From the IMG/VR virus record IMGVR_UViG_2936390555_000003, positions 1 through 64,000 of that record: 64,000 bases of DNA; one strand, 5' to 3'. The DNA comes from a virus (taxonomy: Duplodnaviria > Heunggongvirae > Uroviricota > Caudoviricetes). Shown here in pieces: positions 31,554-64,000 of this stretch. Position numbers and translations under genes: made by a program. Under the pieces are notes generated by a model. The model worked only from the letters and a program-made list of their open reading frames with translations. It was not told the DNA's origin and searched no databases. Position 1 is the first letter of the stretch. Every line of letters begins with the position of its first letter.

Positions 31554-32506
31554 ATGACTTGGTTACAACGATAGACGATAGAGAAGCCGTGACATCCAGC
31601 CGTGTCGTGGCAACAGCCTTTGAAAAAAGGCATGACAATGTTTTGCGAGACATAAGGGGTCTCCTCAAAATTGAGGATACCCAAGGAATGTTCTACAAGA
31701 CTACATATATCAATAAGCAGAATGGACAGAAGTACACGGAGTACCTCATGAACCGCGATGGGTTTGCCATACTGGTCATGGGGTTCACGGGAGCTAAAGC
31801 CCTTGAGTGGAAAATGAAATTCCTGAATCAGTTCAACGCCATGGAATCCGTCATCAGACAGCACGGTCTCGAAGGGAAGGTGCAGAAGTCTCTTGATGCC
31901 ATATCTGACCTGCGAAAGCAATTGAAGGACTCAGGCATACTGAGGGAGTACATAGCTCCCCATCATTTCTTTGACCACCTGGCAGCTCGATGGAAGGAAG
32001 CAACGCACCGTGAGCGCATAAGGGACTTCTATGATGATATTGGTTCTTACGCTGGCGTGAATGTTCCTTATAGCAACATGATAAACATTACAGTCAAGGA
32101 TTGGCTGTTGAATCATGTTGGACTCAGTACCATTGAGGAGCTTGTGATTGGGCTGGAAACACATACGATTACATATTCTAACCGAGGCAAGCCAGTGTCA
32201 AAGCATGGTGTCTTCGGGAACAAAACTGAATGGACAAAGATTGTTAATGAGTTCGGCGGTCGATGTGCTTATTGCGGAGCTGAGGGAACGCCATTGATTG
32301 CCGAACATATCATTTCACAATCCGCGCTGTCCAAAGACCACCCTGAGAAAGTTGACTTGATAGGAAACATTATTCCTGCCTGTCAGCAATGCAACCGATA
32401 GAAATACACGACCGACTTTGAGAAATGGTTCCCAAAGCAGCCATTCTACTCAAAGGCACGGCACAAGAAGATAATAGAACACATGGAGAAGTATGAGGTG
32501 AAGTGA
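31550..32506 (+). CDS. Rha-family regulatory domain fused to HNH endonuclease; contains 1 in-frame TAG (32399-32401)
   Basis: N-terminal Rha motif TSSRVVATAFEKRHDNVLRDIRGLL. C-terminal HNH motif CAYCGAEGTPLIAEHIISQ...NIIPACQQCNR. The frame continues through TAG for 34 more codons to TGA 32504-32506. HNH next to terL is typical. Confidence 0.6.
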
Positions 32507-32507
32507 A

Positions 32508-34130
32508 TTGGCAGAGAACATCATGAGAGAAATCTTTGGCAACAAGCTTCGCAGGGATGCAGAAGTCGGCTCCATGAAAGACAAGTGCGCCCATGACTTC
32601 AAGCTGTTCTGCGAGTATTATCTGGCGGATAGCTTTGGATAGCCCTGGAGCCACAAGTTCCATGACTGGCTGATTGACAAGCTGGTGAGCATAACCTTTG
32701 ACCATAGGGATGATGAAACGAGAACAGTGGTAGCATCGCCTCGTGGTCATGCAAAGTCAACACTCATATCCTTTGGGTATGTACTTTGGCTGATAGTGTA
32801 TAACTACAAGAAGTTCATCGTTATTGTCTCGGCTACTGGCACGGTATCAAAGCAGTTCCTACTGAATATCAGGACAGCCCTTGAGACAAACCAGCGATTG
32901 CGACAGGATTTCGGTGACCTAACCAGCGATGACCTATGGAATAACACGGAGCTTCTTACGCAGAACAAAGTGTTTGTCACTGGTCGTTCGGCAGGACAGC
33001 AGATGCGAGGACTGAACTTTAATGGAACACGACCGGACATCGTTATCCTTGATGACTTGGAAACTCCTGAGCAGGTGGCAAGTCCTGCGCAAACACGTGA
33101 CCTTGAGAAATGGTTTAACTCAGATGTTCTTCCTATGGGCAGCATCAGTGCTGACTTCATTTACATTGGCACAGTGCTTTCATATGAAAGCCTTTTGTAC
33201 CACATGCTGACCAATGCTGGCTACAGCTCATGGACACGCAAGAGGTTTCAGGCGGTAATTGAATTTTCCAGGAGCCCATTGTGGGACGAATGGGAAACCA
33301 TCATTACAGACCTGGAGCGTGGCGACCATGCGTATGACGATGCGGTGGCATTTTACAATGAGCACAAGGAAGAAATGCTTGAGGGCACGGAAGTCCTCTG
33401 GCCAGACCAGCGACCTGATATGTACAGGTATCTCATGGAACGCAGGATAGCCGATGAGGAAAGCTTTGCCAGCGAGTACATGAATGACCCACAGACCGAG
33501 AACACAAGAGTCTTTAAGACCAAGTGGCTTGAGGATAACTATTATGTCGATGCGCCTGACATTCGGGAGATGTGCATTGCCATTGACCCGGCGGTATCAG
33601 CGAAGCGCAAGAATGACTATAGTGCCATTGTTGCTGTGGGGCGTGGCATGGATAACTACTTCTATGTACTGGAAGCCGATGTACAGAAGCGCACCCCTGA
33701 TAAGATTATTGAAGATGCCAAGGAGATAATCGCTAGGTACTACAAGTACAAGCCTAGCATTGTCGTGGAGACCAATCAGATGCAAGCATTCTTTAGCAGT
33801 ACCTTGAAGCGAGATATGGTTAATGCTGGAATATACCTTGACTGGATAGAAGTCTATCGTAAGTCAGGGGACAGCAAGAGCAGTCGTATAGAGAGTCTGG
33901 TACCGCACATAAAGAATGGTTACATAAAATTCAAGGCAAGTCAGAAGATATTGCTTTCACAGCTAAGGAATTATCCAAAGGGACATGATGATGCTCCCGA
34001 CTGCTTGGAGTCAGCGTTGGCTCCGATGCTGAGTACAAACAAAACATCGTTTGGCTTCAGTAGTGCAGGGGCATCTCCGAAGCACGGTGGAACTTTTGAC
34101 TTCCTCAAGAAAGCGATAGGAATGAGGTGA
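32508..34130 (+). CDS. terL: terminase large subunit; 1 in-frame TAG (32640-32642)
   Basis: RBS GAGGTGA before TTG 32508 (alternative ATG 32523). N-terminal segment MREIFGNKLRRDAEV...YYLADSFG-TAG-PWSHKFHDWLIDKL is continuous with ORF 32685..34130. Walker A ASPRGHAKST, Walker B DIVILDDLE. Nuclease domain in the C-terminus. Confidence 0.85.
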
Positions 34131-34134
34131 GAAA

Positions 34135-35427
34135 TTGTTTAACAGTGTAAGAAAGTATTTGGCAAGTGTAATCACGCCACCGTTGATGAAACTGCTTCCA
34201 ACGGACAGGTATGGGACACGGCTGCCACAGAATGTCAAAACGAAATCTGTTTTGCCAAAGAACCCTACCGTGAGGCAGCTACGGAATTTCTCACGAGAGC
34301 CTATTGTGCGCAAGGCAATCATGATTGTACAGGATGCCCTTGCCAGACAGGATTACCGCATTGATGTAATCGGTGGGCGAGGGAAATGCACAAGGCAGAT
34401 TGCAGTGCTAAAGAATATCATCGAACATCCAAACGTGATTGACAGTAAAGACTCGTTCATCAAGAGAATACTTGATGATGCGCTGGTACTCGATGCCATG
34501 ACTGTGGAAATCGCGAGGTCAGAGGATGCGAGCCATCCATTGTTCCTTTATCCGATTGATGGGAGCACCATTCAGCATCTAACTCCGTGTTGCTATTCAG
34601 ATCCGGATGCTGCAAGGTATTGCCAGCAGCAAGCGGATGGTATGAAATACTTTACAGCCAAGGAGGTTGCGTATCTTCAGCGTGAGTATTTCACTTATCA
34701 GCCTTATGGACTGAGCCCTGTCATGACCGCCTACAGGTACATTGATTACTATCTGTCAGCAGTTGACCAGAGCAATTCCAAAGCCACAAACGGCACAGCG
34801 GATTATCTGATTGACCTGAAGGATGTGTCCAATGATGAGCGTGAGAGATTCATCCAGTATTTCAATGAAGAAATTGAAGGTACTGGCAAGATACCGATTA
34901 TCAACGGTACAGAAATTGAAACCAAGCAGATACGGTCGAGCTTCGGTGAATCCAGTTATCTCAACTGGCAGGACAAGCTGACTGCGATTATCGGTGTGGC
35001 TTTTGGACTGCCACCTGAAAAACTTGGGTTGATGATTGCTAATGACAGAAGCACCGGTGAAGACCAGGAGAATACAGTGATGCAGGAATTGATTAAGCCT
35101 TATGCTTCCATGTATGAGGACTTGATTAACACGTATGTCATTGGCGCACTTGGCTGGGGAGGCATCCTTAAATTCCGATTGGTATACGAGGAATCCGAAC
35201 AGCAGAAGACCATAAAGTCCAAACGATTGATTGATGAATACTATCGCGGTGCCATTACTGAGAACGAGTTCCGTGACAATATGGGCTATCCTCAGAGCGA
35301 CAGTCCTTATGCTTCCTTGACCTATCCGGAGAAAACCGTGAAGATTAATGTGGACAACGGATTAGCTGGGGGATTCAATGGGGTTGGCAATGTAAAAGAC
35401 ACCAGCGATACCAAAAAGGATACATGA
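34135..35427 (+). CDS. portal protein
   Basis: 430 aa, immediately after terL. RBS GAGGTGAGAAA before TTG start. Portal-like size and position. Confidence 0.7.
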   Translation: MFNSVRKYLASVITPPLMKLLPTDRYGTRLPQNVKTKSVLPKNPTVRQLRNFSREPIVRKAIMIVQDALARQDYRIDVIGGRGKCTRQIAVLKNIIEHPNVIDSKDSFIKRILDDALVLDAMTVEIARSEDASHPLFLYPIDGSTIQHLTPCCYSDPDAARYCQQQADGMKYFTAKEVAYLQREYFTYQPYGLSPVMTAYRYIDYYLSAVDQSNSKATNGTADYLIDLKDVSNDERERFIQYFNEEIEGTGKIPIINGTEIETKQIRSSFGESSYLNWQDKLTAIIGVAFGLPPEKLGLMIANDRSTGEDQENTVMQELIKPYASMYEDLINTYVIGALGWGGILKFRLVYEESEQQKTIKSKRLIDEYYRGAITENEFRDNMGYPQSDSPYASLTYPEKTVKINVDNGLAGGFNGVGNVKDTSDTKKDT

Positions 35428-35442
35428 AAGGTGGTGAGATAA

Positions 35443-36462
35443 ATGGAGAAAATCAAGGCATCACTTAGTAATGTAACCCTATCCAAAGAAAAGAACCTGA
35501 TGATTATCAATGGATGCATCGCCAAAATCGGTGAGCCAAGCACTGGCGCGCCGTGCGGTTCAGGTGGCTACAACGTATGCTTCACACAGGAATCTGTTGA
35601 TGCATGTGGTAAGAGCTTCGTTGGTATGCCTGTCAACTGCGTGCTCCCTGCTGGCATATGGGGCGATGGTGCTGACGAATGTTACGCGCCAGAGGAAGTC
35701 CTGTCCGGGCATGGAGATACCATCATTGGCTTTGTTCGCAAATGCAAAGCACAGGATGACAACATCATGGCAGAGATTGTCATGTGGAAAGAAAAGTACC
35801 CGTGGCTGGCAGAGCTTACCGTCAATACGATGGACTCATTAGGTTTTAGCGTTGAGATGTACCCGACCAAGGTACACAACGATGACAAGAATAATATCCA
35901 ATACATTGATGAATTTGAGGGCGTTGGCTGTGCAATGCTATGGAGCAATGTGGCAGCGTTTTCCCAGACGTTCATCGATAAGATTGCAGCGATGAGGAGT
36001 GATAATAATATGGATGAAAAGATGAAGAATGAGATTGCGGAGCAGGTAAAGGCTTCCGTAGCAGAGACCGCAGAACAGATTCGGGTTTCCCTTGAGGAGA
36101 CTGTTAATGGCTTGGTAGAATCTGTGGCTGCCATTAGCGAGACTGTGAATAACCTGACGAAAGCACAGGCTGAACCAGAGGAGCCGGAGGTACCAGCTGA
36201 TGAGCCGGAGGAACCGGTGAAGGCTTCCGATGAGACTGAGCAGACTATTGCTGACCTGAAGGCTACCGTTGAGGCACTGAAGGCTTCCATCGAAAAGCCA
36301 AGCATCCCTGAGCCAAAGGCTGGTCAGAAGGCACAGGCAAATCCTAACCTGGATGCACCGAGCGACAAGGCTGAGAGGATTAAACAGATTAATGCATCTT
36401 CCATGTCAGCCATGGAGAAGCTGCGTGCCATTGCCCGTCTGAACATTAAGAAAGAAGGTTGA
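35443..36462 (+). CDS. prohead protease (HK97/S78-like) fused to a C-terminal coiled-coil scaffold-like region
   Basis: Protease-like segments LSGHGDTIIGFV...DSLGFSVEMY. C-terminal Ala/Glu-rich helical region. Between portal and the major capsid protein. Confidence 0.55.
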   Translation: MEKIKASLSNVTLSKEKNLMIINGCIAKIGEPSTGAPCGSGGYNVCFTQESVDACGKSFVGMPVNCVLPAGIWGDGADECYAPEEVLSGHGDTIIGFVRKCKAQDDNIMAEIVMWKEKYPWLAELTVNTMDSLGFSVEMYPTKVHNDDKNNIQYIDEFEGVGCAMLWSNVAAFSQTFIDKIAAMRSDNNMDEKMKNEIAEQVKASVAETAEQIRVSLEETVNGLVESVAAISETVNNLTKAQAEPEEPEVPADEPEEPVKASDETEQTIADLKATVEALKASIEKPSIPEPKAGQKAQANPNLDAPSDKAERIKQINASSMSAMEKLRAIARLNIKKEG

Positions 36463-36468
36463 TAAACT

Positions 36469-37494
36469 ATGTACAATAGAAAGCTTTATAGAGCATCTGA
36501 GAGCCCGATTAACTACGTAAACCAGGGGCACGTAATGATTATTGGTGATTACGACCACGTGCTGAAGGATTACCTGAAGCGTGATTTTGCGATTGACTTC
36601 AAGGTGAACCATGTCCAGGCACTTGGCTATCCGCATGTATGGAATGAGCAGAAGGCAATTCCTGAGAATACTAAGGCCGTTGACCCGCGCGCTGGCTTTG
36701 GCACTAAGGAGACCCCTTCTTATCGTCCGACTACCCTGAACGCCAACTACGACCGTGATAACTGGAAGCAGGCATTTGCCCGTTGCTATATCACTGGTAT
36801 CCGTTATGACTTCTTCGACAAGAAGTTGGAGGAGACCTATGGCGTTATGGAAGACCTGATTGCGAAGGACTACAACGATATGTTCGTTGACTTCTCCCGT
36901 AAGACTGCAAATGATTTTTGGAATGGCACTGGCACCCTCGCTGGTACCACTGAGAACGACCTTGTGTACTGCGGTGTACTGAGCCAGATTACTGACAAGA
37001 CTGCCATCGTTTCCGGCGCAAACATTGCAGATGCCCTGACCACCAAGATTACTTCCTTGATGACTCGCCTGGATTACACCAACTACCCTGATGTTATCTG
37101 CATGAACCCTGCAACCTATGACATCATCATGAAGCAGGAGCAGAACAGGGACATCTATTCCAAGCCGGTTGACATGGAGATTATCCCTGGTATTTCCGTG
37201 CCAGCGTTCTACACTCCGATGGGCAAGCTGCCAATCGTATTGACTCCGTTCATCAAGCCGGTTACCGGTAGTGGCAAGACCACTCACTCCATTGTTGCTC
37301 TGAACACTTCCATGATTGATAAGCTGTACATGTTCAATGATGGTCCTCAGACCTACGAGATTGCCAACCCTGACAATCCGCTGGCCAATGACCGTCTGCT
37401 GACTGACAAGTTTGTCATGGACTTTGCGAACTACATTGTTCACGGCGCACACACCGGTGCACACTTCATCATGACCTATGAGGTAACTGCATAA
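36469..37494 (+). CDS. major capsid protein (HK97-fold), putative
   Basis: 341 aa directly after the protease/scaffold gene. RBS upstream. Abundant-protein codon usage. The long antisense ORF 36406..37464 was rejected. Confidence 0.65.
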   Translation: MYNRKLYRASESPINYVNQGHVMIIGDYDHVLKDYLKRDFAIDFKVNHVQALGYPHVWNEQKAIPENTKAVDPRAGFGTKETPSYRPTTLNANYDRDNWKQAFARCYITGIRYDFFDKKLEETYGVMEDLIAKDYNDMFVDFSRKTANDFWNGTGTLAGTTENDLVYCGVLSQITDKTAIVSGANIADALTTKITSLMTRLDYTNYPDVICMNPATYDIIMKQEQNRDIYSKPVDMEIIPGISVPAFYTPMGKLPIVLTPFIKPVTGSGKTTHSIVALNTSMIDKLYMFNDGPQTYEIANPDNPLANDRLLTDKFVMDFANYIVHGAHTGAHFIMTYEVTA

Positions 37495-37541: not shown

Positions 37542-37727
37542 ATGGCAAGAACTACTAAGGCAACCACTAAGGTTGCAGAAAAGGAAAACATCGTTACTCA
37601 GGAGTATGAACTGCTTGAGCAGTACAAGGACTTCACGCACATCATGGTGAATGGTACACTTGTCCCTGTCCATGGTGGCAAGGTTATCCTGGGTAATCCT
37701 GATATGGCAAAAGGATTATTGAAATGA
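37542..37727 (+). CDS. hypothetical small head-associated protein (61 aa)
   Basis: RBS GAAGGAGAATTGAT. Confidence 0.5.
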   Translation: MARTTKATTKVAEKENIVTQEYELLEQYKDFTHIMVNGTLVPVHGGKVILGNPDMAKGLLK

Positions 37728-38284
37728 GTTACATAAAGGAAAGCGAGATACCAATCTACTGCGGTCTTGTCCGTGGCGTGACCATGGAGCATGTGGAAGC
37801 AGCGACAACTTTGATTGATGCGTACAAAGGTACTAGCTTTCTCCCGGTTCAGCATGTGGAGCGTGTGGAGCTGAAGCAACGCCGTGGGGAATACCGTGGC
37901 AAGCTTAATCATTTCCCTCGCATCTGCATTGATAAAATCACAGCCAAGGCTCGCAGTATTTTCGGTGAACAGAAATTGGAACTCCCGGTGGATTGCATCG
38001 ACTTTGACGATGACCTTTCGTTGTACTTCACGTTTACCATGCCTCGTGAGCTGATGTTCAGGCAGGTTCCATAGAACATAAACATTGTTTATCACAGTGG
38101 CTACAATGTAATCCCTGAACAGCTCAAGAGGGCGTGTGGCATCCTTGCTTGCAATATCAAGCAGATGGGCGGTGTCATGCGGTGGAAGCAACGTGATGAC
38201 TACGACATAAAGGTTACTCTGTCAGACGAAGGCGTGTTCACAGAAGAAATAAAGGTTATGCTTAGAGGAGTTGAGATACGATGA
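37724..38284 (+). CDS. head-tail connector (gp6-like); 1 in-frame TAG (38072-38074)
   Basis: ORF 37724..38074 continues in frame after TAG: ...FRQVP-TAG-NINIVYHSGYNVIPEQLKRACGILACNIKQMGGV..., which matches the gp6-like C-terminal motif (ipe.lk.A.lll...). Ends at TGA 38282-38284, overlapping the next ATG. Confidence 0.55.
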
Positions 38285-38856
38285 GCAGTGTACTTGAATT
38301 TTACTCAGATAGACTTGAGCGATTACAGTGTGAGCGTGGCTTCATCGAGGAAGGGCTCATGCTGCGCAGAGGTAAAACTCAGAACCCATACACAATCTCT
38401 GACCACAAGAACGTCATTGTTCCTCTTGGGACGAAGATTGCAAATGGCGACCTCATAAAACGCATCGACCATGAGTTGCAAGACCAGTTTATCATCGTTG
38501 CAAAGCAGATTGGAGCTGACTGCGTATCCATGCAGGGCAAGCGTATCAATTCCTTTATTGATATTTACCAGATTAGCAACAAGCTGGATGACCATCATCG
38601 CAAGGTTGGCTTGAAGGAAGAGCTTGTTCTCAAGAATGTTCCTTCGTACTGCGAAGACCAATCAGCATACAATCAGTTCTATGATGCCGGTTATCTTCCA
38701 AAGGTTGTAAAGAAATTCTTTGTGCAGCCTGACGACAGAATAAAGGATATGCAGCGCATCAAGAGTGAAGATGGTGTATTCCAAATTGACGGTATCACCA
38801 AAGAAAAATACCGTGATGTTTGGGTAATACAGGTTTCGGAGGATGCCAGGAAATGA
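38281..38856 (+). CDS. hypothetical head/neck protein (191 aa)
   Basis: Operon context. No TAG. Confidence 0.55.
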   Translation: MSSVLEFYSDRLERLQCERGFIEEGLMLRRGKTQNPYTISDHKNVIVPLGTKIANGDLIKRIDHELQDQFIIVAKQIGADCVSMQGKRINSFIDIYQISNKLDDHHRKVGLKEELVLKNVPSYCEDQSAYNQFYDAGYLPKVVKKFFVQPDDRIKDMQRIKSEDGVFQIDGITKEKYRDVWVIQVSEDARK

Positions 38857-39722
38857 ATGAGAGGCTTTAGAAAAGAATGGAGAGATGCCTTCGCAAGTTT
38901 GCCCGTGCAAAGAAGAAGGAATTTTACCATAAGATGAACAAGACCGCAAAGCAGTACAAGAAAGATCGTGGTGAAATTCATTTTGAATCAGAGGTTTCTT
39001 CCACTATGGGTAAGGCAAAGTTATCATTAGCTGCCTATGGTCAGAGAGTATGGACATTCGAGTATGGCAAGGGTAAAGGCACTGGCACATTCGAGAAAAC
39101 GAATTATACTTTACCAACATCGTTCCATAAGACAAAAATATTCAGGCAATACACTGGTAATCCTGCGAGAAACCCAATGCGAAAAGTTTACCAGCTATAT
39201 GCCAATAGGCCTTCTAAGCGTAAAAACAAAATCACTGTTAGACGCAAGAGGGGGGATGTTGTTCAGGAATACGAAATGAGCTATCCAAAGCTTATCAGTA
39301 CACCGATTAAGAGCAATCGTGTAATGGATAAGAATGGGCTCATGAGGCTCATGACGAAGAAAGAACAACTTGCCGAAAGCAACATTGGCTGGAGACAGCA
39401 AATCATAGGATTGTTTACGATTTACTCTCGACCGGGTACTTACACCGACCTCGATGGTAAATAGCATACATCCGATGCTAAAGCTGTGTTCGACTTAGAA
39501 AAACCTAATAAGCATGGGGTACTAAAGAGGCCCAAGCTCTCTCATCCAGGTAGAGCCTATGTTACCAACTTGTTTGAATATGACTTTGTGCGAGAGAAGC
39601 CTCGGATATTCCCCGACAGGTCTAAAGCTCCTGATTGGACATTGCATGGCTTCTGCAAGCAAGCTAACGAGGAGATAAAGGAATACGCTGAAAACGTGTT
39701 TGAGGAATTAGGATTTAAATGA
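38853..39722 (+). CDS. hypothetical basic neck/tail protein; 2 in-frame TAG (38868, 39462) if started at 38853 (alternative start 38877)
   Basis: ORFs 38877..39464 and 39486..39722 share a frame and are separated only by TAG 39462-39464 plus 7 codons. RBS GGAGGATGCCAGGAA before ATG 38853. Confidence 0.45.
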
Positions 39723-40114
39723 ATGCATTTGAGTATGTAGACACACTTTGGTTCCTGTGTGCAGAAAATGAAGAACTAAGGGACCTGCTTAACATAAGCG
39801 AAGATGAGGATTACTCATTGAAGATAAGGCAAGAGGATGTATCAGCGGAGGGTTATGATGCAGACAAGCTTCCATTTATCGCAATGTATTTTTATGAAGC
39901 TTGGACGACTTATAATGACTTTGCTAATCTTGGCTACTTGTACATTGACATATATGCGCCGACACGCGAGGCTGTCCCTGCGATACGAAAGATAATCGTA
40001 GACACAATGCATGAGCATTTTAATGAGAGGGTTCGCAACGAAGGACAACAGCAAAGCGGTGTACATGCAGTGTATAAATACAGATTAGAATTTACTCCTC
40101 TGATTTCCACATAA
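39719..40114 (+). CDS. hypothetical tail-completion-like protein (131 aa)
   Basis: Operon context. ATGA overlap with the upstream stop. Confidence 0.5.
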   Translation: MNAFEYVDTLWFLCAENEELRDLLNISEDEDYSLKIRQEDVSAEGYDADKLPFIAMYFYEAWTTYNDFANLGYLYIDIYAPTREAVPAIRKIIVDTMHEHFNERVRNEGQQQSGVHAVYKYRLEFTPLIST

Positions 40115-40131: not shown

Positions 40132-40902
40132 ATGGCTAACGTAGCAAACATTTTGAACACCCCAGTATTGCTCCATGGTATCGGTAAGGGCGTACTCAAG
40201 ACCGTATAGGGCAAGATTCTTGAGTTCACCACTGCTCAGTCCATGAAGCTGAATGTTACCACCTCCTCCGAGGATGTATACGGTGGTGACTCCCTGTTCC
40301 CTCTGTACACCTACCTGACTCAGAAGGAAGGCACCGTTGAGATTACCAACGCTGACTTCAAGCTTTCCCAGGTTGATATTGCACAGGGTACCAAGACCAG
40401 CACTACTGGCAACAAGCGCAACTACATGGTAAAGATTACCAAGGACAGCTCCAAGCTGACCGATGATTCCGTTCCTGTAACTGGTGTTGAGGTTATTGCG
40501 ATGGTAGGTCCTGATGGTAAGAGCGTACCTGTAGCAACCGATGCTGGCGATGATGTTGTTGCAATTTCCGCTACCGGTGCGATTACCGTTGGCACTAACG
40601 TAACTCTGGATGAGGGCGAGTACAACGTATGGTTCCGTGCTGACAGCTCCGCATCCGTGGCAGCTGAGATGCTGAAGAACGCTATGCCAGAGGTATCCGA
40701 GTTCACTTGGATGTTCACCACCGAGGATGCAGATGGCAACAAGTATCAGATTGACATCTATGCCCGTCGTGTCCGTGCAAACGGTGAGCTGGCTATTGAG
40801 ACCGCACGTGATTCCGCAAGCACTCCTACCTTGACTGTCAAGATTCTTGACCCAGGCGATGGCAGGGATGACTTTGCAACCATTACTATCACTAAGCTGT
40901 GA
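40132..40902 (+). CDS. major tail protein, putative; 1 in-frame TAG (40207-40209)
   Basis: MANVANILNTPVLLHGIGKGVLKTV-TAG-GKILEFTT... runs in frame into ORF 40243..40902. Followed by a strong terminator (high-expression gene architecture). Precedes the G/GT chaperones. Confidence 0.55.
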
Positions 40903-52204: not shown

Positions 52205-52343
52205 GGTTTTCAGAGTATATAATGTCGCTCTAGGTATAAACTATAGGGCGACATGATTATACCCTGAAAAATGGGGCATAATGGGTACTTTTGGGTACCC
52301 AGAATTGATTGTAGATGGTATAATGATACCGAGGTGATAGCGA

Positions 52344-53520: not shown

Positions 53521-53536
53521 TTTATTGGAGGAAAAT

Positions 53537-53965: not shown

Positions 53966-54035
53966 GAAACGCCGTGGTGGCTGCAAGTGATTCGGGGGAG
54001 CTTCCATGCTCCCTCAGTAAGGAGGCATGAAAAAT

Positions 54036-54395
54036 ATGGAAACACTAAAGTTAATCCCAAGAGGTGATGTGACCAAGGCATACGACTATGGGAACAATGT
54101 TGTATAGTTTGAGAATGGCTTGCAACAGGTTCAGAGGAAATATGTGACTCCTCGCCTTACCTTGTCCATCCACGTCGAGGGTGACAAAGATATGAAGGAA
54201 TACCTGGAGGAATTCATCAATGCCAGGCATGGCAACTATGAAGCTTTCTATTGGACATACGAAGGGCACACCGATGTTTACCGTTTTGGCGAGAGTTCCA
54301 TACAGTTCACGGAAATACGTGGCTACGAGGGCGAGGGGACTGTGGGCTACAAGGCTGACATAAGCCTCCAGAGATGCAAGGAGCGTGAGTATTAA
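54036..54395 (+). CDS. hypothetical tail protein (119 aa); 1 in-frame TAG (54105-54107)
   Basis: RBS AGTAAGGAGGCATGAAAAAT before ATG 54036. In frame with ORF 54120..54395. Confidence 0.5.
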
Positions 54396-55189: not shown

Positions 55190-55193
55190 TTGG

Positions 55194-58100
55194 ATGCAAG
55201 GATATAACGTATTAAGCGATGAGAAGCATCGTGAAGTAATGTTTAACTTTGACCTCCAGTTGTTCGGCGGTGGAGGCGGAGGCAAGGGCGGAGGAAAACT
55301 CTTTGGTGTACTTGCTTTCGCTGCACTTGGATGGTTTTGCCCGGCAGCATTTGGGTTTGCTGCGTAGGCTCACTTTGGCGCAGCAGTCATGGGCGCAGCA
55401 TTGTTTTCCAGCGTATGGACTGCAACCCATCGCCAGGACAGCTATAACTATGACGGCGCATCTGACATACAGAGGTTCGAGCGTTCCCAGGAAACCATGA
55501 CCTCCGACGGAGACCTGCCTGTTGTCTACGGTCGCCGACAGATTTCAGGCAACCAGACATATCACAAGACCAATTCTGATTCTACGACCTTATGGAAGCA
55601 CGTTGTATTGTGCGAGGGTGGAATTGAGGGTATCGAGTCCGTGACAGCAAATGACCTGCTGATACCTACGGGCTCCCAGACTGGCAACACTGTATTCACC
55701 ATTCAGAACGTGAAGTACCCTGATGCGTGGGTAAAAAAGGAAGGGCATACGCTTACCCTGTATGCTAATGGAAATACCAAGTAGATTTACCTGTGCACCA
55801 AGGACGACTTGCAGAATCCAAATGCAAGTTTTTGGGAATATCAGGTATCTATGGGCTCGCTGATTTCCTATATCAACCGCATGGGCGAAGGCTGGCAAGC
55901 GTTTCCTATATAGAGTACCAATAAATATCCTGGGGAATTATGGGATGCATGGGGAGAGCAGGATGGTTAGTATGGATATGCGTGGTGGTTTTGGGTAGGG
56001 CCCAACGGCATACAAGTTAACAATGACCCAATCCTAAATGGTTTAAACTACCAACAGATTATGACGCTGATGAAGCTGGGGACTGGGCACACAATGGAAG
56101 CAAATGGCTGGATATATCGTTGTGTTGGCCAGGAGATAATAAAGGTCCTTACAGGGTATAAGAAAGGCTATGCTTATGTAAATGGTAAATATCAACGAGT
56201 AGATATTCCTATATACAAAGACAGGCTTGTAAATAAAATCTATCGCTATCACAAAGGTGGAGCTAGTTGTTACAGAAGTCCTGCAAACTTCCAATGCTCC
56301 ACGGTAACAGGCGGCACATCGTATACATTCCATGACTGCACGCCTCCGTAGAATTACAACGAGGTCGGTGGCTATCCTAATATGGCATGGCTGGACATGA
56401 CCTTCACGATTTCAAATGAGCTGAATGGTAATCCAAGCGTATCCTGCCTGGTCAAGGGGCGCAAGGTATACGACATAAGAACAGGCATAACCGCGTACTC
56501 CACGAATCCTGCATTGTGCCTCCGTGATTTCCTGTTGTCCAAGCGGTATGGCTTAGGCAAATGGTTCACTGCGGACATGCTCGACACGGACTCATGGATA
56601 GAAGCAGCGGACTACTGTGACGAGCAGATAACATTCCTTGATGGACAGGGAGCCAAGGTCACAGCAAAGCGTTATGAGCTGAACATGGTTATCGACAGCA
56701 AGCGCACGGGACTGGAATGGGTACAGGAGATTCTTGCGAACTTCTGTGGCTACCTCGTATACAGCGGTGGCAAGCTGAAGCTCAAGATTGAAAAGCAGAC
56801 ACCTGTATCATATAAGTTTACCGACGATAACTGCTTTGACCTGAAGATTTCACCGCTTGCTCTGTCGGAGACACCGAACCGCTATGAGGTGACGATAATT
56901 GACCCGTTGAATAACTGGGCAGCAGTGAAATGTATATGTGATGACTACGCAGACCAGAAGGAAAGACAGCGGATAGTAACGAAAGCTGTGAGCCTCGAAG
57001 GCGTAACATCGCAAAACCAGGCATTACGTTTGGCAAGGTTCTATCGTGATTATAACCTTGTGTGCCCTATTCAGCTATCGTTCACTACAGGCATGCAGGG
57101 AATGCATCTGGAACCGGGCGATGTCGTAACTGTATCATACCATGGTGTGTTCAAGGATATGCCGATACGCATCAATGAGATAAAGGAAACAAACAAGGGC
57201 ACTTTTGAGATAAGTGGTAGGCAGTACAACGATACGATTTATGGAGACATCCTGGGCGGTGGCATCCACTGGTATAACTATAGCACCATGCAGACACCGT
57301 TGGTCGGTGAAATCCCGGAGGTAATCAATCTGCAAGCGGTAGATGATACCTATGTACTAAAAGATGGGACGAAGAATTCCACCATAAAGCTCACATGGGA
57401 AAAGCCATCTGGTTACCAGTTTACCAGCAGTTATACGATAGATTATTCACTGGACGATGGAGCAACATGGATAGCAGCTGGAAGCACGAGGGAAACCAAT
57501 TTCTCTTTCCCTGCTCGCATGTACTGGACACATCTCATCAGGGTTCGCGTTGAGAATACCGTGGGACGATTGTCAGCCGGTGAGAAAACATCTGTGTATG
57601 TAAGCGGAAAGAACAATCCTCCATAGGATGTAGTGAATCTCAAGGCAGAACTTTTGAATCAGAGCATCCATCTTACCTGGGATGCCAACGCTGATCCTGA
57701 CCTTAAAGGGTACAACGTGTACATGGGGATTAACGGATGCGAGAAATCCAGTTGTGAGCTTGTAGCCAAGGCACATTCATCGAATACCATTATTATTCCG
57801 ATTGAGTCCGCGGAGGACTACATATTCTACGTTGAAGCTGTGGACACTGCCGGGAATATATCTGAGCATGCAGCGTATGTAAATGTTCACCTGGATCCAC
57901 TACCTGCGGTTACAGGGTTTTACGCTGTAAAGAATGGCGATAACATAAATTTCTATTGGGACAAGGCTGGCGATTGCAACTATGAAATCCGCTGGGGAAA
58001 TTCATGGAAGACAGGGCAGCTTGTGGCTAAAGTGAATTCAAATGTGTATACGCATTTCTTTCCGCTGATAGGCACGTATTCATTTTTCATCAAGGCATAT

Positions 58101-59006
58101 GATGGGCTTGGCTTGTACAGTCGTGATGCTTCGTATGTAAGGATTACCCTGACTCCGGCGGTAACACGCAATATCATAGCTGAGTTCGATGAAAGAGCCA
58201 ATGGATGGCGAGGGGCAAAAAACCTTACATACGTTGGAGATAACTGCTTAATCAAAGGAAGCAGTGCAGTGAGCGGAGAATACTATACGAATATAAGGCT
58301 GGACAAGGAAGTAGAGGCACGCAACTGGGTAGAGTTTGACATCATCAGCCTTGCCAGTGATTATACGTGGGTGACAGCGAATACCGATTGGCAGGACGGT
58401 GATTATGCATGGCTACAGACCGAAGGCAATTACCGCTGGTGCGATGCCGAGAAAGCGTGGACGGACTATGAATTTTCATGGAAGGAAAATGCTGACGAGT
58501 ATCCGGTGGAAGTAAGCAATTACATTGCCCAGTACAAAGGAGTCGACGATTACCTGTACACATTCGACCTGAATGAGAATACAGATGGGGCAAAGGTGGC
58601 TACTGGCATAACCTATGCTGATGGCAAGTTCAGGCAGGGGGCCGTGATAAACAATGGCGTAACCTTGGATTATGCCGTGAATATACCAGCGGAGTTCAAC
58701 CTGTCTTTCAATGCAAAGCATCATGAGATAATAGACAAGCATATTGTCTACATGACACTGGAAGGCTCTAACGGCTGGATGCGCGTAGAATACAAGGATG
58801 GCATAGTGAGTCTGCTGGATTCGGCACAGAACCGCATCGAGATACCGATGAGGAATTACGGTGAGGATGCATTGAATTTCTATATACAGCAGAAGGCTGA
58901 CGAGAGAATCCTCACGGTCAACAGCATAGCAAATGGCAAAACCATGTCAGCAAGCTTACCGCTGGGACCTATGGGGACATTTACAGAAATGAGGTTGAGA
59001 CCATGA
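55194..59006 (+). CDS. host-specificity/central tail fibre protein (gpJ-like) with FN3 domains; single 1,270-codon frame with 6 in-frame TAG (55365, 55782, 55911, 55968, 56349, 57624)
   Basis: ORF-track pieces 55110.., 55389.., 56061.., 56382.., 57633.. are contiguous in one frame, separated only by TAG. FN3-like TWEKPSGYQFTSSYTIDYSLDDGATW and LTWDANADPDLKGYNVYMG. Gly-rich N-terminal segment. Confidence 0.6.
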
Positions 59007-59066
59007 ATGAGCAGATGGATATAAAGGAAGAAGTGGAGATACATGTTATCAGAGGAGGTAATGCAA

Positions 59067-59486
59067 ATGAAGATTGATGGAGTCATGACAGTATAGGTTT
59101 ATCACAAGGATGGCAGTGTGCGCACTGTTATTCAGCATAATATGATTGTAGCCAGCGGATACGATGCTATGTGCGATGTTATTGGTAATGGTGTAATGGC
59201 ACACATGAGCAAGATTATGGTTGGTAGTGGCACCACTGATACGAATGCTTCCATGACAGCACTTGAATCCAAGGTAGCAGAGAAGGCTGCTGTGTATGCT
59301 CACGAGCAGGGCACTCGCAGCTTTTCCTTGAGCACGGATTTCTTGGAAGGCGAGGCTGTCGGCGCACTCACTGAGGCTGGCGTGTTCAACAGTGATGATG
59401 TAATGCTTGACCGTGTAACCTTCAAGCCATTGAACATTGATGCCGATGACCGCGTGAGCATGAAGTTTGACTTCACGTTCTCTTAA
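59067..59486 (+). CDS. hypothetical tail protein; 1 in-frame TAG (59094-59096)
   Basis: RBS CAGAGGAGGTAATGCAA before ATG 59067. MKIDGVMTV-TAG-VYHKDGS... continues in ORF 59118..59486. Confidence 0.45.
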
Positions 59487-59498: not shown

Positions 59499-60053
59499 AT
59501 GGCTACGACACATAACTCTTATGAAGCCCAGTGGAAGAACGTAGGATTTACATGGGCAGAAAATGCGAGGGCGTGGGAACAGTGCCAGACGATTGACCAG
59601 TACGATGTTGTTACCGCTGAATAGATATAGGCTGATGATGGAAAACGTATTGCTATTCATAAGCATAGCCACGAAGACATGTCGGTTAGCTCGGAATTTG
59701 AAAAGAAAACTTTGTTTGCAAGAAGCCCTGCGGAGAAAATCGGATTCTACGATAAGCCTTCGTATTCATGGCTGAACAGCCCATTCAAATGGGGCGATGA
59801 TACCTGGGCAGAAGCCGTGATGTACCATGACAGGGACGTGGTTTTCGATGTAAGCAAGGCTCAGAGCACGGACATAAGCGTGGATGTCGTGAATAGCAAT
59901 GTGCCATCGCTACTCAAGAAGGAAGCAGTGGTAGTGCAGGAGGACGCTCGTGGCACCGTGACGTTTGTAAGGAACTTCAGCGAGAGCATAAGCATAGCCG
60001 ATGAAGCATCTAAGGATATAGCTGTGAATAATCATGAGCCGATTGTTCTTTAG
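59499..60053 (+). CDS. hypothetical tail protein; 2 in-frame TAG (59622, 59628)
   Basis: ATG 59499 is in frame with ORF 59679..60053 through ...VVTAE-TAG-I-TAG-ADDGKRIAIHKHSHED. Weak RBS (TGGGTGG). Confidence 0.4.
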
Positions 60054-60059
60054 GAGGAC

Positions 60060-60500
60060 ATGCTTAACAATAGCGGGGCCGTGGTGAGCGATATTATCGT
60101 GTCCGCCACGGAAATTCCAACGATGCTCCCAGCTGGCTATGGAGACTGGCAGCCATTCGTTAGCGGTGACTACAAGTATAGAGAGGCACTGTTGAAGTGT
60201 GTAATGAAAATAGAAGGAAACACGAATACAATTGTTCTTCCAAAGTATACCGTGTTCGTAGACCTGCCTGACATTCAGGACCATGCGGTGACAAGGATTG
60301 AGTCGGCTGAAAACACATACATTCCATTCAACCTTGATTTCTATCGTGTGCCGGAGGTGACCATTACTACCGTCGGTGGCATGGAAGTAGTGATACCGAT
60401 TATTACGAAGGTTACTGAGGACGGTTTCTGGGTTGAGCTAAGAAACCTGGATAAGGAATTGTCTACAGGTACTATTTCATGGTCGGCTTTGGGATGCTAA
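60060..60500 (+). CDS. hypothetical protein (146 aa)
   Basis: RBS TTTAGGAGGACATG. No TAG. Confidence 0.55.
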   Translation: MLNNSGAVVSDIIVSATEIPTMLPAGYGDWQPFVSGDYKYREALLKCVMKIEGNTNTIVLPKYTVFVDLPDIQDHAVTRIESAENTYIPFNLDFYRVPEVTITTVGGMEVVIPIITKVTEDGFWVELRNLDKELSTGTISWSALGC

Positions 60501-60513
60501 GGAGGAGTATTGA

Positions 60514-60882
60514 ATGACAGACTATCAAATGTTTTAGCTTGTAACCAATTGGATAAACCTGATTATCATACCGTTTGCCATTTGGCTTTACCGGTATCTC
60601 TCCAATTGGAAAAAGGAAAATGCAAAGTAGGAAAACGAAAAGGAAAAGAGGCGCAGGGCACAGCAAATGGCTATCATGGCGTTGCTGAGAGACCGCATCC
60701 TGCAGAGCGGAAGGTACTTTGTAAAACTTGGGGCTATCCCATAGGATATAAAGGTATCGTTGCTCCGCATGGGCGAGGCATATGCTGACCTTGGAGGTAA
60801 CGGTGAGGGGCATAGGATGGTAGAGCAAATCAGGGCTTTGCCAGTAGATGACCTGGTGATTGAGCATAGGAGGGATAAGTAA
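60514..60882 (+). CDS. holin-like small membrane protein; 3 in-frame TAG (60535, 60628, 60742), tentative
   Basis: RBS CTAAGGAGGAGTATTGA before ATG 60514. One TM helix LVTNWINLIIIPFAIWLYRYL followed by a charged tail. Stop TAA overlaps the next ATG (TAATG). A different frame from track ORF 60510..60788. Confidence 0.4.
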
Positions 60883-62327
60883 TGCAGAATTATACAGAGA
60901 TTTCAGAGAATCAGACATTGAGGGATTCGAGGAGCTTGCTTCTGAATAACGATAAGACTGCAATGAGCAACAGCAGTGGCGAGAGTTTTCCAACGCAGAA
61001 CCTTCAGATTGGCATGTTCTGCTATAGGACTGACGAAAAGAAACTGTATCAGCTCATGGACAACATGCCTACATGGAAGCTCGTAGTTGACATGAGTGGC
61101 GATGGGGCCAAGGTTGCTTAGGTTGATAAAGATGGCGTGAACGAGGATGCGTTGCAGGACGAGGCTGTCACTGAAAACAAAATTTTAAACAAGGCTGTTT
61201 CCACGGAAAAGCTTGCGGACGAGGCTGTCACCGGCAAAAAGGTGGACATCCTGAGCCTCAGGAGCTATATTGTTGCAGCTACTCCGCGGTACTATGCGCG
61301 CGCCGAGGTTCCGGCTGCATCAGCAAGGACTATCATTAGTATCCCGTCTGACATTTGGATAAATATCAACAATAATGGTTACGTTATTAATGGTGGAACG
61401 GATATTGACATTAACGTGAGTGACAATTGGGACAATGCAACCTATGCTACCGCATAGAATCGTAAGGGCAAGGATTTCTATATGTATGCTTGCATTGGCG
61501 ACAATGGGATAAAGCTTGTGCTTTCCGCTAATAGCACTGTTCCAACTGGGTACAATGCCAACACATCTCGTAAGATTGGCGGTTTCCATTGCCTCTGCGC
61601 TAATGTTGGCTCCATCACTGGACATACACTGTCTGGCTACGTTGCTGGTGACATTATCCCTGGCTCCGTGTGGGACCTGCTTCACAGGGCAAAGAGTGAT
61701 AACGTTGGTATGGTTTATCATGAAGGACTTGGCATATGGGCTGACATCTATGGGGCATCATGGGATGGCTCCAAGCTTACGAGCGTATACGGCGGAATCT
61801 TTGCCGACGGAGAGAGCGCAAAGAGGTTCCATGGAGAGTTGTTCGTTGAGGAGTTTGGCAAGATTGGTAAGCGTTTGATTAGCCGTGCAGAGTTCCAGGT
61901 GCTGGCAAAGGGAAGTAATGAATGTACCAATATATCTGGTTCTGCTGACCCAGGTACTACAGGTGGGCATGTTGATACCGCTGGTCGGCGCATGATTTCT
62001 AATTTTGGTCTTGAGGATTGCTGCGGAGCAATGTGGTCATGGACAAGTGATTTGCTTGAGAATTATCCTGGGAGCGTATGGAACTCCGCGAACTACTACT
62101 TGGATAGCTATGCTTGGCAAGAGAGGTCTGTGTATAATCCGGATATTGATTCCCAGAAGTATGGTTCCTGCTTTGGCTTGCTTCGTCGGTGTCTAGTCGG
62201 TGGCGATTGGAGCGTTGGTTCGTATTGCGGTTCCCGTGCGGCGGATTGTGACAATTTCTCGTCTGACCGCTTTGCCGCTTTCGGTGGGCGTGCGGTGTCG
62301 GAGCCGAGGGTTGTTCATCTCGGCTAA
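60882..62327 (+). CDS. tail fibre / receptor-binding protein, DGR target (C-terminal C-type-lectin/FGE-like variable region); 2 in-frame TAG (61119, 61455)
   Basis: ORFs 60882.., 61137.. and 61482..62327 share one frame. N-terminal tail-fibre repeats (AVTENKILNKAVSTEKLADEAVTGKKVD). C-terminal ...WSWTSD...CLVGGDWSVGSYCGSRAADCDNFSSDRFAAFGGRAV contains the variable region. Confidence 0.7.
62175..62302 (+). repeat. DGR variable region (VR)
   Basis: 128 bp aligned to the TR with 17 mismatches. Every mismatch falls at a TR adenine (G or T in VR). Confidence 0.85.
62301..62327 (+). promoter_or_regulatory. GC-rich hairpin immediately 3' of VR (GAGCCGAG-ggttgttcat-CTCGGCT), DGR IMH/hairpin-like element
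   Basis: Perfect 7-bp inverted repeat at the VR 3' boundary, as found downstream of VRs in characterised DGRs. Confidence 0.5.
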
Positions 62328-62464
62328 TCGGCTAAAAGAGTAAAACGGGACGGACGAATGGACGACGGTACTTCTGGTCGGCGGTTCGTCAAGACGATTA
62401 AAAACCGTCGCGTGAGCGACGGGCGATATATATTTTTTCTAGGTTCATAAGTCGTTCCTGCAAT

Positions 62465-62592
62465 GGCTTGCTTCGTCGGTGTCTAGTCGGTGGCAATTGG
62501 AGCAATGGTTCGTATTGCAGTTCCCGTGCAGCGAATTGTAACAATTTCTCGTCTAACCGCAATGCCACTATCAGTGGGCGTGCAGTGTCGGA
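62465..62592 (+). repeat. DGR template repeat (TR)
   Basis: Non-coding copy of the VR between the target gene and the RT. Adenines at all variable positions. Confidence 0.85.
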
Positions 62593-62715
62593 TATGGGGG
62601 TACAATGGTGTCGAGCAACCCTCAGCTGGGCTTATGAACCTTCCTGCAAAGGAAAATACACAACAGGGGAAGGAGTGTGGCTAGTAATGAAAATGAACGT
62701 CATAGAGCCTCCGTT

Positions 62716-63738
62716 ATGAAACGTCATGGCAATCTTTTTGACCTTATTGCCAGCAAGGAAAACTTATTGGTAGCATTTAATAAGGCTAAGAAGGGAAAGT
62801 CACGGCAAAGGAAGGTTAATGTGGTTGCCAGGAACTTGGATAGAATGCTTAGTGATTTGCATGAGAGCTTGGTTTCTGGTAACTACCATACCTCTCCATA
62901 TAAAACGAGGACTATATATGAGCCAAAGGAAAGGCTTATATACATATTACCATTTTATCCAGATAGAATAGTACATCATGCAATTATGAATGTACTTGAG
63001 CCGGTCTGGAATAACTTAATGTATTACCATAGCTACGCTTGTCGTAAGGGCAAGGGGATGCACCGTGGCAGTACCTTATGTATGGCGTATGTAAAGCGAT
63101 ATAAATATGTGTTGAAATGCGATGTGTCTAAATTTTATCCGAGCATTAATCATGAAGTGCTAAAGAAAATCATTAGGAAGAAAATTAAAGACGGTAGATT
63201 ACTTATGCTTCTTGACGAGATTATTGATAGCACTGGCACACCAACAAATGTACCTATAGGAAACTATCTTAGTCAGTGGTTTGGCAATCTTTATCTTAAT
63301 GAGCTCGATGAAATGGTCAAGCATAAGCTTGGTGTTAAATCGTATATTCGTTATAGCGATGATTTCGTATTGTTTAGCAACAACAAGTAGGAGCTGCATG
63401 AATGGGCGAGGAGAATAAGGGAGTTCCTTGCATCAAAGCTTTGCTTGCGCATGAGTAAGTGCGATGTATTTCCGGTGAGTAGAGGGGTTGACTTCCTTGG
63501 ATATAGGCATTTTCCAAATAAAATCCTGTGTCGCAAAAGGACGGTGAAGTCGTCCAAGAGGCATGTGAAGGAAACCATGCATCTTCTTAGAAGCGGACGT
63601 ATATCAAAGGAGCAAGCATTAAGCAAGTTGGCAAGTGTAGTCGGATGGATTAAGCACGCCCAGTGTCACAACCTGTATAATGCTATGGAGATAGACAGGA
63701 TAAAAAAGGAAGTGTTAGAATATGAAGAAATTCAGTGA
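62716..63738 (+). CDS. DGR reverse transcriptase; 1 in-frame TAG (63388-63390)
   Basis: Start MKRHGNLFDLIASKENLLVAFNKAKKGK (alternative GTG 62677). RT motifs incl. YSDDFVLF (YxDD). The frame continues after TAG (...FSNNK-TAG-ELHEWARRI...GVDFLGYRHF...) to TGA 63736-63738. Confidence 0.8.
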
Positions 63739-64000
63739 TTTTGCAAAGACGGAAGCCGGGCTTGTCGGCGATAAGCTAAAGATAAGCGAGGTTATGAATA
63801 AGAAAATCGTGGTCACAGGCTATCGTATGCTTACATAGAAGCATAATAGCAGACCATTGCTGCATCTGCAGTTTGAGCTTGAGGGCAAAACGCATACCAC
63901 GTTTACCAATAGCGTAGTGTTAATCCGTCAGTGCGAGACATATCAGGAGGAAATTCCATTTGAGACGATGATTGTCAAGCAGTCCAATTATTACACGTTT
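63722..64000 (+). CDS. hypothetical protein, partial (runs off the window); at least 1 in-frame TAG (~63836)
   Basis: RBS AAAAAGGAAGTGTTAGAAT before ATG 63722. Overlaps the RT 3' end. Confidence 0.35.

Follow-up and report, generated by a model that had tools for sequence, protein, structure and literature searches.

Reassignment of the amber codon TAG in late genes, by means of suppressor tRNAs that the phage itself encodes, has been described for crAss-like, Lak, Garnet and Topaz phages (bioRxiv 10.1101/2021.08.26.457843; PMC9523058; PMC7886860). Garnet and Topaz are prophages of Prevotella and Oscillospiraceae, and their integrase genes, free of internal TAG, may end in TAG (bioRxiv 10.1101/2021.08.26.457843). 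Proteomics has shown that TAG means glutamine in two crAss-like phages, whereas elsewhere in the papers on genetic code 15 phages this meaning is predicted; Borges et al. have proposed that such recoding gates the late and lytic genes (bioRxiv 10.1101/2021.08.26.457843). Here we analyse a 64,000-nucleotide stretch of a virus genome (IMG/VR record IMGVR_UViG_2936390555_000003, positions 1 to 64,000; hereafter the window), in which in-frame TAG codons run through the late operon downstream of an amber suppressor tRNA. We are highly confident that these codons are read through by the phage's own tRNA, and serine is the probable residue inserted. The serine identity is the new element here, recoding of late genes being already known; the original prediction, made from the sequence of the window, had also presented the temperate context as novel, a claim that lapses because TAG-recoded Garnet and Topaz prophages with TAG-free integrases put such a temperate, Firmicutes-type setting on record (bioRxiv 10.1101/2021.08.26.457843).

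Results

In-frame TAG codons in the late operon

Thirty-six in-frame TAG codons interrupt 17 of the 26 late open reading frames (ORFs) of the window, whereas internal TAA and TGA codons and frameshifts are absent. The original prediction had counted about 34 and placed them in essentially all late genes, which overstates their spread, since nine of the 26 ORFs, including those of the portal, the scaffold-like protein and the major capsid protein, are free of TAG. Its gene-by-gene counts agree with ours except at the 59499 gene, which holds three TAGs and not two, and the genes 29515-30159 and 30166-30756 do lack TAG, as it had stated. The operon is composed as follows.

28259-64000, + strand: long operon, with the terS candidate and the diversity-generating retroelement (DGR) among its contents
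28259-28579, 29515-30159 and 30166-30756, + strand: genes preceding the tRNAs; no TAG in any
31550-32506, + strand: Rha/HNH endonuclease gene (Pfam Phage_pRha and HNH); one TAG, 32399, spanned by the HNH match
32508-34130, + strand: TerL (Pfam Terminase_6C); one TAG, 32640
34135-35427, + strand: portal; no TAG
35443-36462, + strand: scaffold/protease-like gene; no TAG
36469-37494, + strand: major capsid gene, SU10-type; no TAG
37724-38284, + strand: connector-like gene; one TAG, 38072
38281-38856 and 39719-40114, + strand: TAG-free ORFs among the head-tail and tail genes
38853-39722, + strand: neck-like gene; two TAGs, 38868 and 39462
40132-40902, + strand: major-tail-like gene; one TAG, 40207
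41190-41468, + strand: small secreted protein gene; one TAG, 41298
42062-52204, + strand: tape measure gene, ~3,380 codons (Pfam PhageMin_Tail); seven TAGs, 42131, 42524, 42632, 44348, 45197, 48206 and 48266
53537-53965, + strand: NlpC/P60 gene (Pfam); two TAGs, 53693 and 53840
54027-54395, + strand: minor tail gene (Pfam); one TAG, 54105
54395-55189, + strand: gp84/BR0599-like hub gene (Pfam); two TAGs, 54629 and 55034
55110-59006, + strand: J-like central tail fibre gene, 1,298 codons (Pfam Phage-tail_3); six TAGs, 55365, 55782, 55911, 55968, 56349 and 57624
59043-59486, + strand: gene of unknown function; one TAG, 59094
59499-60500, + strand: gene of unknown function; three TAGs, 59622, 59628 and 60051
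60514-60882, + strand: holin-like gene (by position); three TAGs, 60535, 60628 and 60742
60882-62327, + strand: DGR target gene, Mtd-like; two TAGs, 61119 and 61455
62164-62311 and 62454-62601: variable repeat (VR) and template repeat (TR) of the DGR, respectively
62716-63738, + strand: DGR reverse transcriptase; one TAG, 63388
63722-64000, + strand: partial gene; one TAG, 63836

By Pfam the product of 30166-30756 is DUF7338, while the gene at 29515-30159, which had been labelled terS, and the genes at 59043, 59499 and 60514 gave no match. Once TAG is read as sense, the re-reading that had been suggested, the longest ORF in 32000-64000 reaches 10,194 nt, up from 3,936 nt; with TGA or TAA as sense there is no gain (3,936 and 3,978 nt). 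The tape measure then forms one frame of 3,381 codons free of TAA and TGA, which cannot arise by chance, and the earlier dismissal of coincidence stands.

Across the 47 early, middle and pre-tRNA genes (9,149 codons) there is no in-frame TAG, compared with 31 expected at the late-gene rate (P ~2e-14; 0 of 9,149 early codons versus 35 of 10,202 late codons). Late genes end in TAA (12) or TGA (13) and never in TAG, and in the window as a whole 71 genes terminate with TAA or TGA and the integrase gene alone with TAG. In standard-code relatives TAG terminates 19 of 267 genes (7%), and hence it was already rare as a stop. The integrase TAG is a genuine stop, because read-through in the sister genome described below would enter the convergent polymerase gene.

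Within the late genes TAG occurs at 3.4 per 1,000 codons, close to the rarest serine codon, TCG (3.9 per 1,000). The TAGs are skewed towards the 5' part of the genes, 17 of 35 falling within the first quarter (binomial p = 0.003; Kolmogorov-Smirnov p = 0.005; late genes 31550-63738). The preceding base is A in 19 of 36 cases, and the base after TAG shows no departure from background among the 36, so that we claim no signal for context-dependent read-through.

Relatives, host and constraint beyond the TAG codons

By Pfam the whole 64 kb is phage DNA, from a temperate, siphovirus-like phage of ~76 kb. The sister genome, IMG/VR contig IMGVR_UViG_3300045988_145964 (76,576 nt; loci L001, L012, L176 and L177), is 85-95% identical to the window and circularly permuted with respect to it. 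A 13-kb contig binned into an Anaerovibrio sp. metagenome-assembled genome (L096) shares ~86% identity with the window, and the chromosome of Mitsuokella multacida DSM 20544 carries an integrated relative (L097) whose TerL is 59% identical. On account of these two, the host is probably a member of the Selenomonadaceae (Anaerovibrio or Mitsuokella; gut or rumen), and the phage family is temperate. Megablast of 30000-54000 against the INPHARED phages gave short tRNA-like matches alone and no known relative.

It is extremely unlikely that the host itself reads TAG as sense and that the phage simply follows the host's code. The host is known by the Anaerovibrio assignment and the related Mitsuokella prophage only, which leaves some room for this idea; yet such a code would put TAGs into the early genes, where 9,149 codons hold none, and the phage brings its own suppressor. 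Moreover, 90 related viral loci (201,079 aligned residues), among them the Mitsuokella prophage, hold no in-frame TAG and use TAG as a stop at the rate given above. The TAG-free early genes and these standard-code relatives suggest that the host uses the standard code.

Alignments to standard-code relatives, by tblastn (~90 relatives) and blastp, run unbroken across 24 TAG columns and at every TAG that has a homologue, which is what the original prediction had expected. Between window and sister the ratio of nonsynonymous to synonymous substitution rates (dN/dS) is 0.098 upstream of the first TAG of each gene (1,104 codons) and 0.090 downstream of it (6,371 codons), with 0.051 for TAG-free genes (1,718 codons). 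Since the values beyond the TAGs resemble those upstream, the protein is under constraint in the same frame past the apparent stops and, together with the absence of TAG from the early genes, this bears out recoding specific to the late genes. Twenty-seven TAG positions are identical in the sister and others recur in L096. Were the window a decaying prophage or a misassembly that has gathered nonsense mutations, the fragmented ORF track under code 11 would be accounted for, and nothing else: the interruptions are TAG without exception, the frames are intact, dN/dS is 0.09 downstream of the TAGs, and TAG positions common to independent assemblies rule out assembly error and pseudogene decay, so that the probability left to this explanation is practically nil.

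A serine-type suppressor tRNA at the head of the late genes

Between the TAG-free leading genes and the first TAG-bearing gene lies a short tRNA islet.

30755-30776, + strand: putative terminator-like hairpin with T run (consensus scan)
30784-30871, + strand: amber suppressor tRNA, 88 nt, anticodon CUA (ARAGORN); Rfam tRNA model 56.6 bits
31033-31107, + strand: tRNA-Lys(UUU), an ordinary tRNA that accompanies the suppressor in the islet

To judge from its sequence, the tRNA at 30784-30871 is a tRNA-Ser(CUA) derived from a serine tRNA. It has a 7-bp acceptor stem with A3:U70, a CU-CUA-AA anticodon loop, G73 and an encoded CCA, and the variable arm of ~17 nt, with a 5-bp stem, belongs to a canonical 7/5 class-II architecture. 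Compared with the class-II tRNAs of related phages, it is 57-58% identical to tRNA-Ser but only 40-49% to the tyrosine and leucine tRNAs, every one of which carries A73 in the related loci. Identity rises to 69% with the tRNA-Ser(UGA) of phage L208 and to 74-79% with other phage class-II tRNA(CUA) genes; over all these comparisons the values for phage tRNA-Ser(UGA/GCU) genes are 57-58% and 69%, those for Tyr and Leu 40-53%. The Ser-type suppressor that had been proposed from the window is thus upheld, both by this grouping and by the TAG columns treated below. Because seryl-tRNA synthetase (SerRS) identifies its substrates by their long variable arm and acceptor end, and not by the anticodon, the tRNA(CUA) would be charged with serine; E. 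coli supD, which inserts serine, is serU with its CGA anticodon changed to CUA.

ARAGORN labels the gene tRNA-Pyl, on account of the anticodon alone. This assignment was rejected, as the tRNA has a long variable arm whereas tRNA-Pyl has a 3-nt variable loop and a short D loop and goes with pylS and pylBCD genes, and none of the ORFs scanned against Pfam matched a Pyl-related family.

The suppressor tRNA is kept in the sister, where it differs at four positions and where an A:T pair of the T stem is matched by a compensatory G:C pair. In place of the tRNA-Lys(UUU) of the window (30872-31032 region), the sister islet (L001 8072-8465) holds tRNA-Phe, tRNA-Met and tRNA-Cys, and standard-code relatives have up to eight tRNAs at this site, including Ser(GCU), Ser(UGA), Leu and Tyr. 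With the 5' half of the tRNA as search pattern, the sister contig alone was retrieved from IMG/VR and nothing from JGI metagenomes. The hairpin at 30755-30776 sits 8 nt upstream of the suppressor tRNA, between this gene and the stop codon of ORF 30166-30756; as a consensus match only, it is a hint that expression of the tRNA and the late genes may depend on read-through of the hairpin or on a separate promoter. Hepatitis delta virus (HDV)-like and theta ribozymes have been reported beside phage suppressor tRNAs (PMC10879173); near the tRNAs of the window an Rfam search for them found just the two tRNAs.

The residue inserted at TAG

To identify the residue, an empirical substitution table was built from the same alignments (~95,000 residue pairs) and 20 residue hypotheses were scored over the 24 TAG columns. 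With one vote per column, serine is the best hypothesis, followed by alanine (-4.0 log units), threonine (-4.7), asparagine (-7.6) and glutamine (-11.7). When control sets of 24 columns with a known residue were classified, the success rate was 97.5% or higher for each amino acid, and glutamine reached 99%. Serine makes up 20.5% of the residues in TAG columns against a background of 6.8%, glutamine 2.2% against 3.9%, and serine is the commonest residue in 8 of the 24 columns, as listed here with counts of distinct homologue contexts.

HNH codon 284: Ser in 10 of 12
TerL codon 45: Ser in 21 of 37, Thr in 5
J codon 414: Ser in 29 of 58
J codon 225: Ser in 17 of 57
J codon 839: Ser in 15 of 50
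Major tail gene codon 26: Ser in 6 of 24, tied with Asn
NlpC/P60 codon 155 (of the 53378-53965 ORF): Ser in 2 of 5
41190 gene codon 37: Ser in 1 of 1

The serine codons of the relatives at these columns are AGY or TCY, none of which is a one-step neighbour of TAG, and the match to serine is therefore functional and not mutational. Among the three recoded genomes, namely the window, the sister and L096, TAG alternates with serine codons five times (TCA three times, TCC and TCG), with glycine twice and with glutamate and lysine once each. The route from TAG to TCA or TCC has to lead through TCG, as the alternative intermediate, TAA, is a stop.

Other phages with a Ser-like tRNA(CUA) extend the comparison. 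An IMG/VR scan for the pattern GGTCT-CTA-AAACC, 12-32 nt, GGTTCRAATCC returned 55 contigs, ~14 of which have class-II Ser-like tRNA(CUA) genes, several of them matching the window tRNA exactly in the D arm and the anticodon arm. The CUA tRNA of L200, like that of L185, is a near-paralogue of the tRNA-Ser(UGA) in the related phage L208, and that of L191, 69% identical to the window tRNA, is in essence the E. coli serU tRNA carrying CUA as its anticodon. In L200 (portal 2114-3742, tRNA 3799-3886) and L214 (portal 619-2247, tRNA 2350-2433) the Ser-like tRNA(CUA) lies directly 3' of a portal gene that itself holds in-frame TAGs. These two loci are unrelated to the window phage, the weak matches to this locus group coming from unrelated window proteins alone. 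Among 120 database homologues, the two portal TAG columns have serine in 98 of 98 and 80 of 99 distinct contexts, which at the level of sequence comparison is the cleanest evidence that a tRNA(CUA) of the Ser-like type means serine, and which shows that the phenomenon extends beyond the window.

Several observations count against the assignment to serine. The TAG columns are less conserved than ordinary serine columns, the margin over alanine is 2.5-4 log units where true serine columns give ~8, and several columns align to K, E, P or Y, of which we read the K (AAG), E (GAG) and Y (TAC) columns as reflecting the mutational origin of young TAG codons. The sister suppressor has U73 where canonical serine tRNAs have G73, although a phage tRNA-Ser(UGA), that of L029, has U73 too. 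Finally, a window TAG corresponds to a glutamine codon in the closest relatives four times (CAG three times and CAA), which taken alone would fit glutamine.

Glutamine, the sense of TAG in genetic code 15 and the only one found in reports on phages, would accommodate the four window TAGs that are CAG or CAA in the sister, and also P0121, the closest relative of the L214 portal (98.5% identical), which has glutamine at one TAG column. Yet TAG to CAG is a single transition and as such the commonest route of gain or loss whatever TAG means. Over the 24 columns glutamine falls 11.7 log units behind serine, in a test that calls true glutamine sets correctly in 99% of controls; it is absent from the HNH, TerL and major tail columns, is shown by no more than one homologue at J225, J414 and J839, and in the 120 database homologues of the J-like fibre reaches at most two per column, alanine being the commonest residue at codon 268. 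The suppressor, of class II with a long variable arm, is unlike any tRNA-Gln (class I, short variable loop). We regard glutamine as very unlikely.

Another small residue, alanine or threonine, or an ambiguous decoding through a mischarged suppressor, comes nearer in the alignments, at 4-5 log units behind serine and with threonine or alanine commonest in 7 of 24 columns. Bacterial tRNA-Ala and tRNA-Thr, however, have no long variable arm, the suppressor carries A3:U70 and not the G3:U70 required by AlaRS, ThrRS reads the anticodon, and the L200 and L214 columns show serine in 98 of 98 and 80 of 99 contexts. This alternative too is unlikely, and we take serine to be the probable residue. In the literature on recoded phages we found no report of TAG read as serine, an earlier mention being possible, and to our knowledge no NCBI translation table assigns TAG to serine.

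Distribution and age of the recoding

Within this phage family, recoding is confined to the three closely related genomes. At 85-95% identity they differ at 13 positions in the presence of TAG, and L096 has TAG in the portal gene (TCG in the window) and in the major capsid gene (GAG in the window). The low density of TAG, its turnover between sisters and its variable positions make the reassignment look young and still in flux. We lean towards the broader view that TAG as serine is a natural phage code variant, missed because pipelines assume glutamine, which arose at least twice and of which the window represents an early stage; if so, the birth of a codon reassignment would be directly observable in the window clade.

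A different kind of long tRNA(CUA) was seen in ~35 large IMG/VR phage contigs (80-415 kb; for example L180, L186, L189, L192, L198, L204, L206, L212 and L216-L229). These genes, of ~90 nt, have Gln-like (type I) acceptor and D arms and a hairpin of ~20 nt (roughly TTCCCTYTGAAGGRG) between the anticodon stem and the T arm, and often adjoin an ordinary 75-nt Gln-like tRNA(CUA).

A model for late-gene decoding

The explanation that we consider likely for the window as a whole is that TAG is read as serine in the late genes through the phage's own class-II tRNA, charged by the host synthetase. The TAG-free early, replication and lysogeny genes would be translated by unmodified host machinery. The late part of the operon opens with the tRNA islet, whose first gene is the class-II tRNA(CUA) of apparent tRNA-Ser descent, and this tRNA would accumulate with or just before the late mRNAs. 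Charged by host SerRS, it would compete with release factor 1 (RF1) of the host and insert serine at UAG, and the 36 UAGs in the 17 genes for packaging, tail, tape measure, fibre, putative lysis and DGR functions would thereby be read through.

This scheme does not account for an efficient reading, against RF1, of all the UAGs in the mRNAs of the tape measure (seven) and the fibre (six), and Pfam detected neither a release factor, nor an RF1 inhibitor, nor an aminoacyl-tRNA synthetase in the window or in the additional 12 kb of the sister, which likewise speaks against it.

Such an arrangement could also have a regulatory role. If late and lytic proteins need the phage tRNA, their synthesis would be blocked under leaky transcription in lysogens or in early infection, and the chances that the TAGs act as a lock of this kind on the late and lytic genes appear roughly balanced. 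Should tRNA and late genes share a transcript, the value of a temporal lock would be doubtful. The 5' skew of the TAGs could reflect early abortion of translation when the tRNA is lacking, and variable N-termini fit it equally well.

The TAGs may, on the other hand, have no regulatory role. Under neutral codon capture TAG would still mean serine, having drifted into tolerant sites from CAG, AAG, GAG, TCG and TAY, and the early genes would be free of it because they are translated before the tRNA accumulates. The poor conservation of the TAG columns agrees with this, as do the 13 differences across three genomes that are 85-95% identical, the similar rates of TAG and TCG, the outgroup codons one step from TAG at some sites (AAG, GAG, TAC) and the unbiased base after TAG. 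Drift alone does not predict the excess in the first quarter of the genes (17 of 35), though N-terminal variability might, nor does it sit well with the finding that recoded phages of unrelated clades converge on the genes for late functions and lysis (Borges et al., bioRxiv 10.1101/2021.08.26.457843). We put neutral capture at somewhat under an even chance and regard it and the gating role as about equally likely, the decoding of TAG as serine by the phage tRNA being common to both.

Further features of the genome

Outside the TAG-bearing genes, the window is organised as follows.

1-28214, both strands: early/middle region; no in-frame TAG (stop-codon table, Pfam)
1-993, - strand: tyrosine integrase (Pfam), the sole gene terminated by TAG
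1548-13958, + strand: replication and nucleotide-metabolism genes, including T7-like single-stranded DNA-binding protein, primase-helicase, RusA, ribonucleotide reductase and dUTPase (Pfam)
14462-28214, - strand: mostly unknown genes, with a second integrase-family recombinase, DUF932 and RadC (Pfam)

An exact-protein look-up found no identical protein on record for the integrase. The second recombinase of the Phage_integrase family (261 aa, 20046-20831, - strand) lies in the middle of the early block. The large subunit of ribonucleotide reductase (9293-11724) is encoded in two ORFs, 9293-10102 and 10372-11724, which are in different frames and ~270 nt apart, and one Pfam Ribonuc_red_lgC match covers both pieces. 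The gap gave no Rfam match even at a permissive threshold and may be a small intron or another intervening element. In the 12 kb that the sister has beyond the window lie genes for an amidase, for a Bro-N/ANT antirepressor and for a DnaE-like polymerase with an intein. The last of these, a gene for a DnaE-like DNA polymerase III alpha subunit (sister contig ~4570-9120; L176), consists of two ORFs of 414 and 974 codons, the second of which holds a Hint/LAGLIDADG intein. The split reductase and the split, intein-bearing polymerase suggest a genome rich in intervening elements.

In the tail module, ~800 nt between the 52271-52732 ORF and the NlpC/P60 gene (52732-53537) have stops in all six frames. 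This gap is ~90% conserved in the sister, shows no coding similarity to other loci and no Rfam match, and may be a non-coding RNA or a regulatory region.

The DGR looks complete: adenines of the TR account for 17 of the 20 mismatches between TR and VR, and the reverse transcriptase resembles bRT of the Bordetella phage (PDB 8ub7, E = 8e-56). As both the target gene and the reverse transcriptase gene hold TAG, the DGR also depends on the suppressor.

Discussion

Tools that detect code 15, such as prodigal-gv, Pharokka-gv and similar programs, would place glutamine at every TAG of this operon, and since no NCBI translation table is known to offer serine for TAG, genomes of this kind are systematically mistranslated. 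Serine tRNAs are the easiest route to reassignment, as SerRS ignores the anticodon. The presence of standard-code sisters and a measurable turnover of TAG make the clade a tractable system for stop-codon capture, and the case tests the idea that recoding gates late genes in a temperate phage in which neither release-factor nor synthetase helpers were found. For technology, amber suppressors of Ser type that evolved in nature and compete with RF1 in Firmicutes-like hosts could supply useful parts.

With the code 15 phages of the gut, the window shares a phage-encoded tRNA(CUA), a concentration of TAGs in structural, late and lysis genes, TAG-free early genes and integrase, and a depletion of TAG as terminator, as well as a host presumed to use the standard code and shallow recoded clades beside standard-code relatives. 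It departs from them in that the tRNA appears to be of class II and Ser-derived, with alignments that favour serine and not glutamine, in its low density of TAG (3.4 per 1,000 codons), and in that Pfam found no RF2 or aminoacyl-tRNA synthetase gene beside the tRNA; the Selenomonadaceae (Negativicutes), moreover, are not among the hosts described. The phages that read TGA as tryptophan (code 4) follow the same logic, by which a suppressor tRNA of the phage turns one stop of the late genes into sense, but codon, amino acid and competing release factor are different (bioRxiv 10.1101/2021.08.26.457843).

The serine amber suppressors supD of E. coli and psu1+ of phage T4 are laboratory mutants, tRNA-Ser species with a CUA anticodon that insert serine at UAG against RF1. 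The window suppressor is likewise of tRNA-Ser type with CUA and, from its sequence, an expected substrate of SerRS, but where supD and psu1+ act on accidental nonsense mutations, 36 UAGs are built into the late genes of the window and the suppressor is obligatory. A shift of serine to a new codon through an anticodon-blind SerRS is familiar from the CUG-Ser clade of yeasts. Amber variants of allo-tRNAs have been found to insert serine at UAG in E. coli (Mukai et al., PMC5389517). In these, too, the anticodon-blindness of SerRS is used to put serine on a new codon; the allo-tRNAs, however, have an 8/4 or 9/3 acceptor/T architecture (PMC5389517) and are tied to no recoded genome, whereas the window tRNA is of the canonical 7/5 form and stands at the head of the late genes in which its codon occurs.

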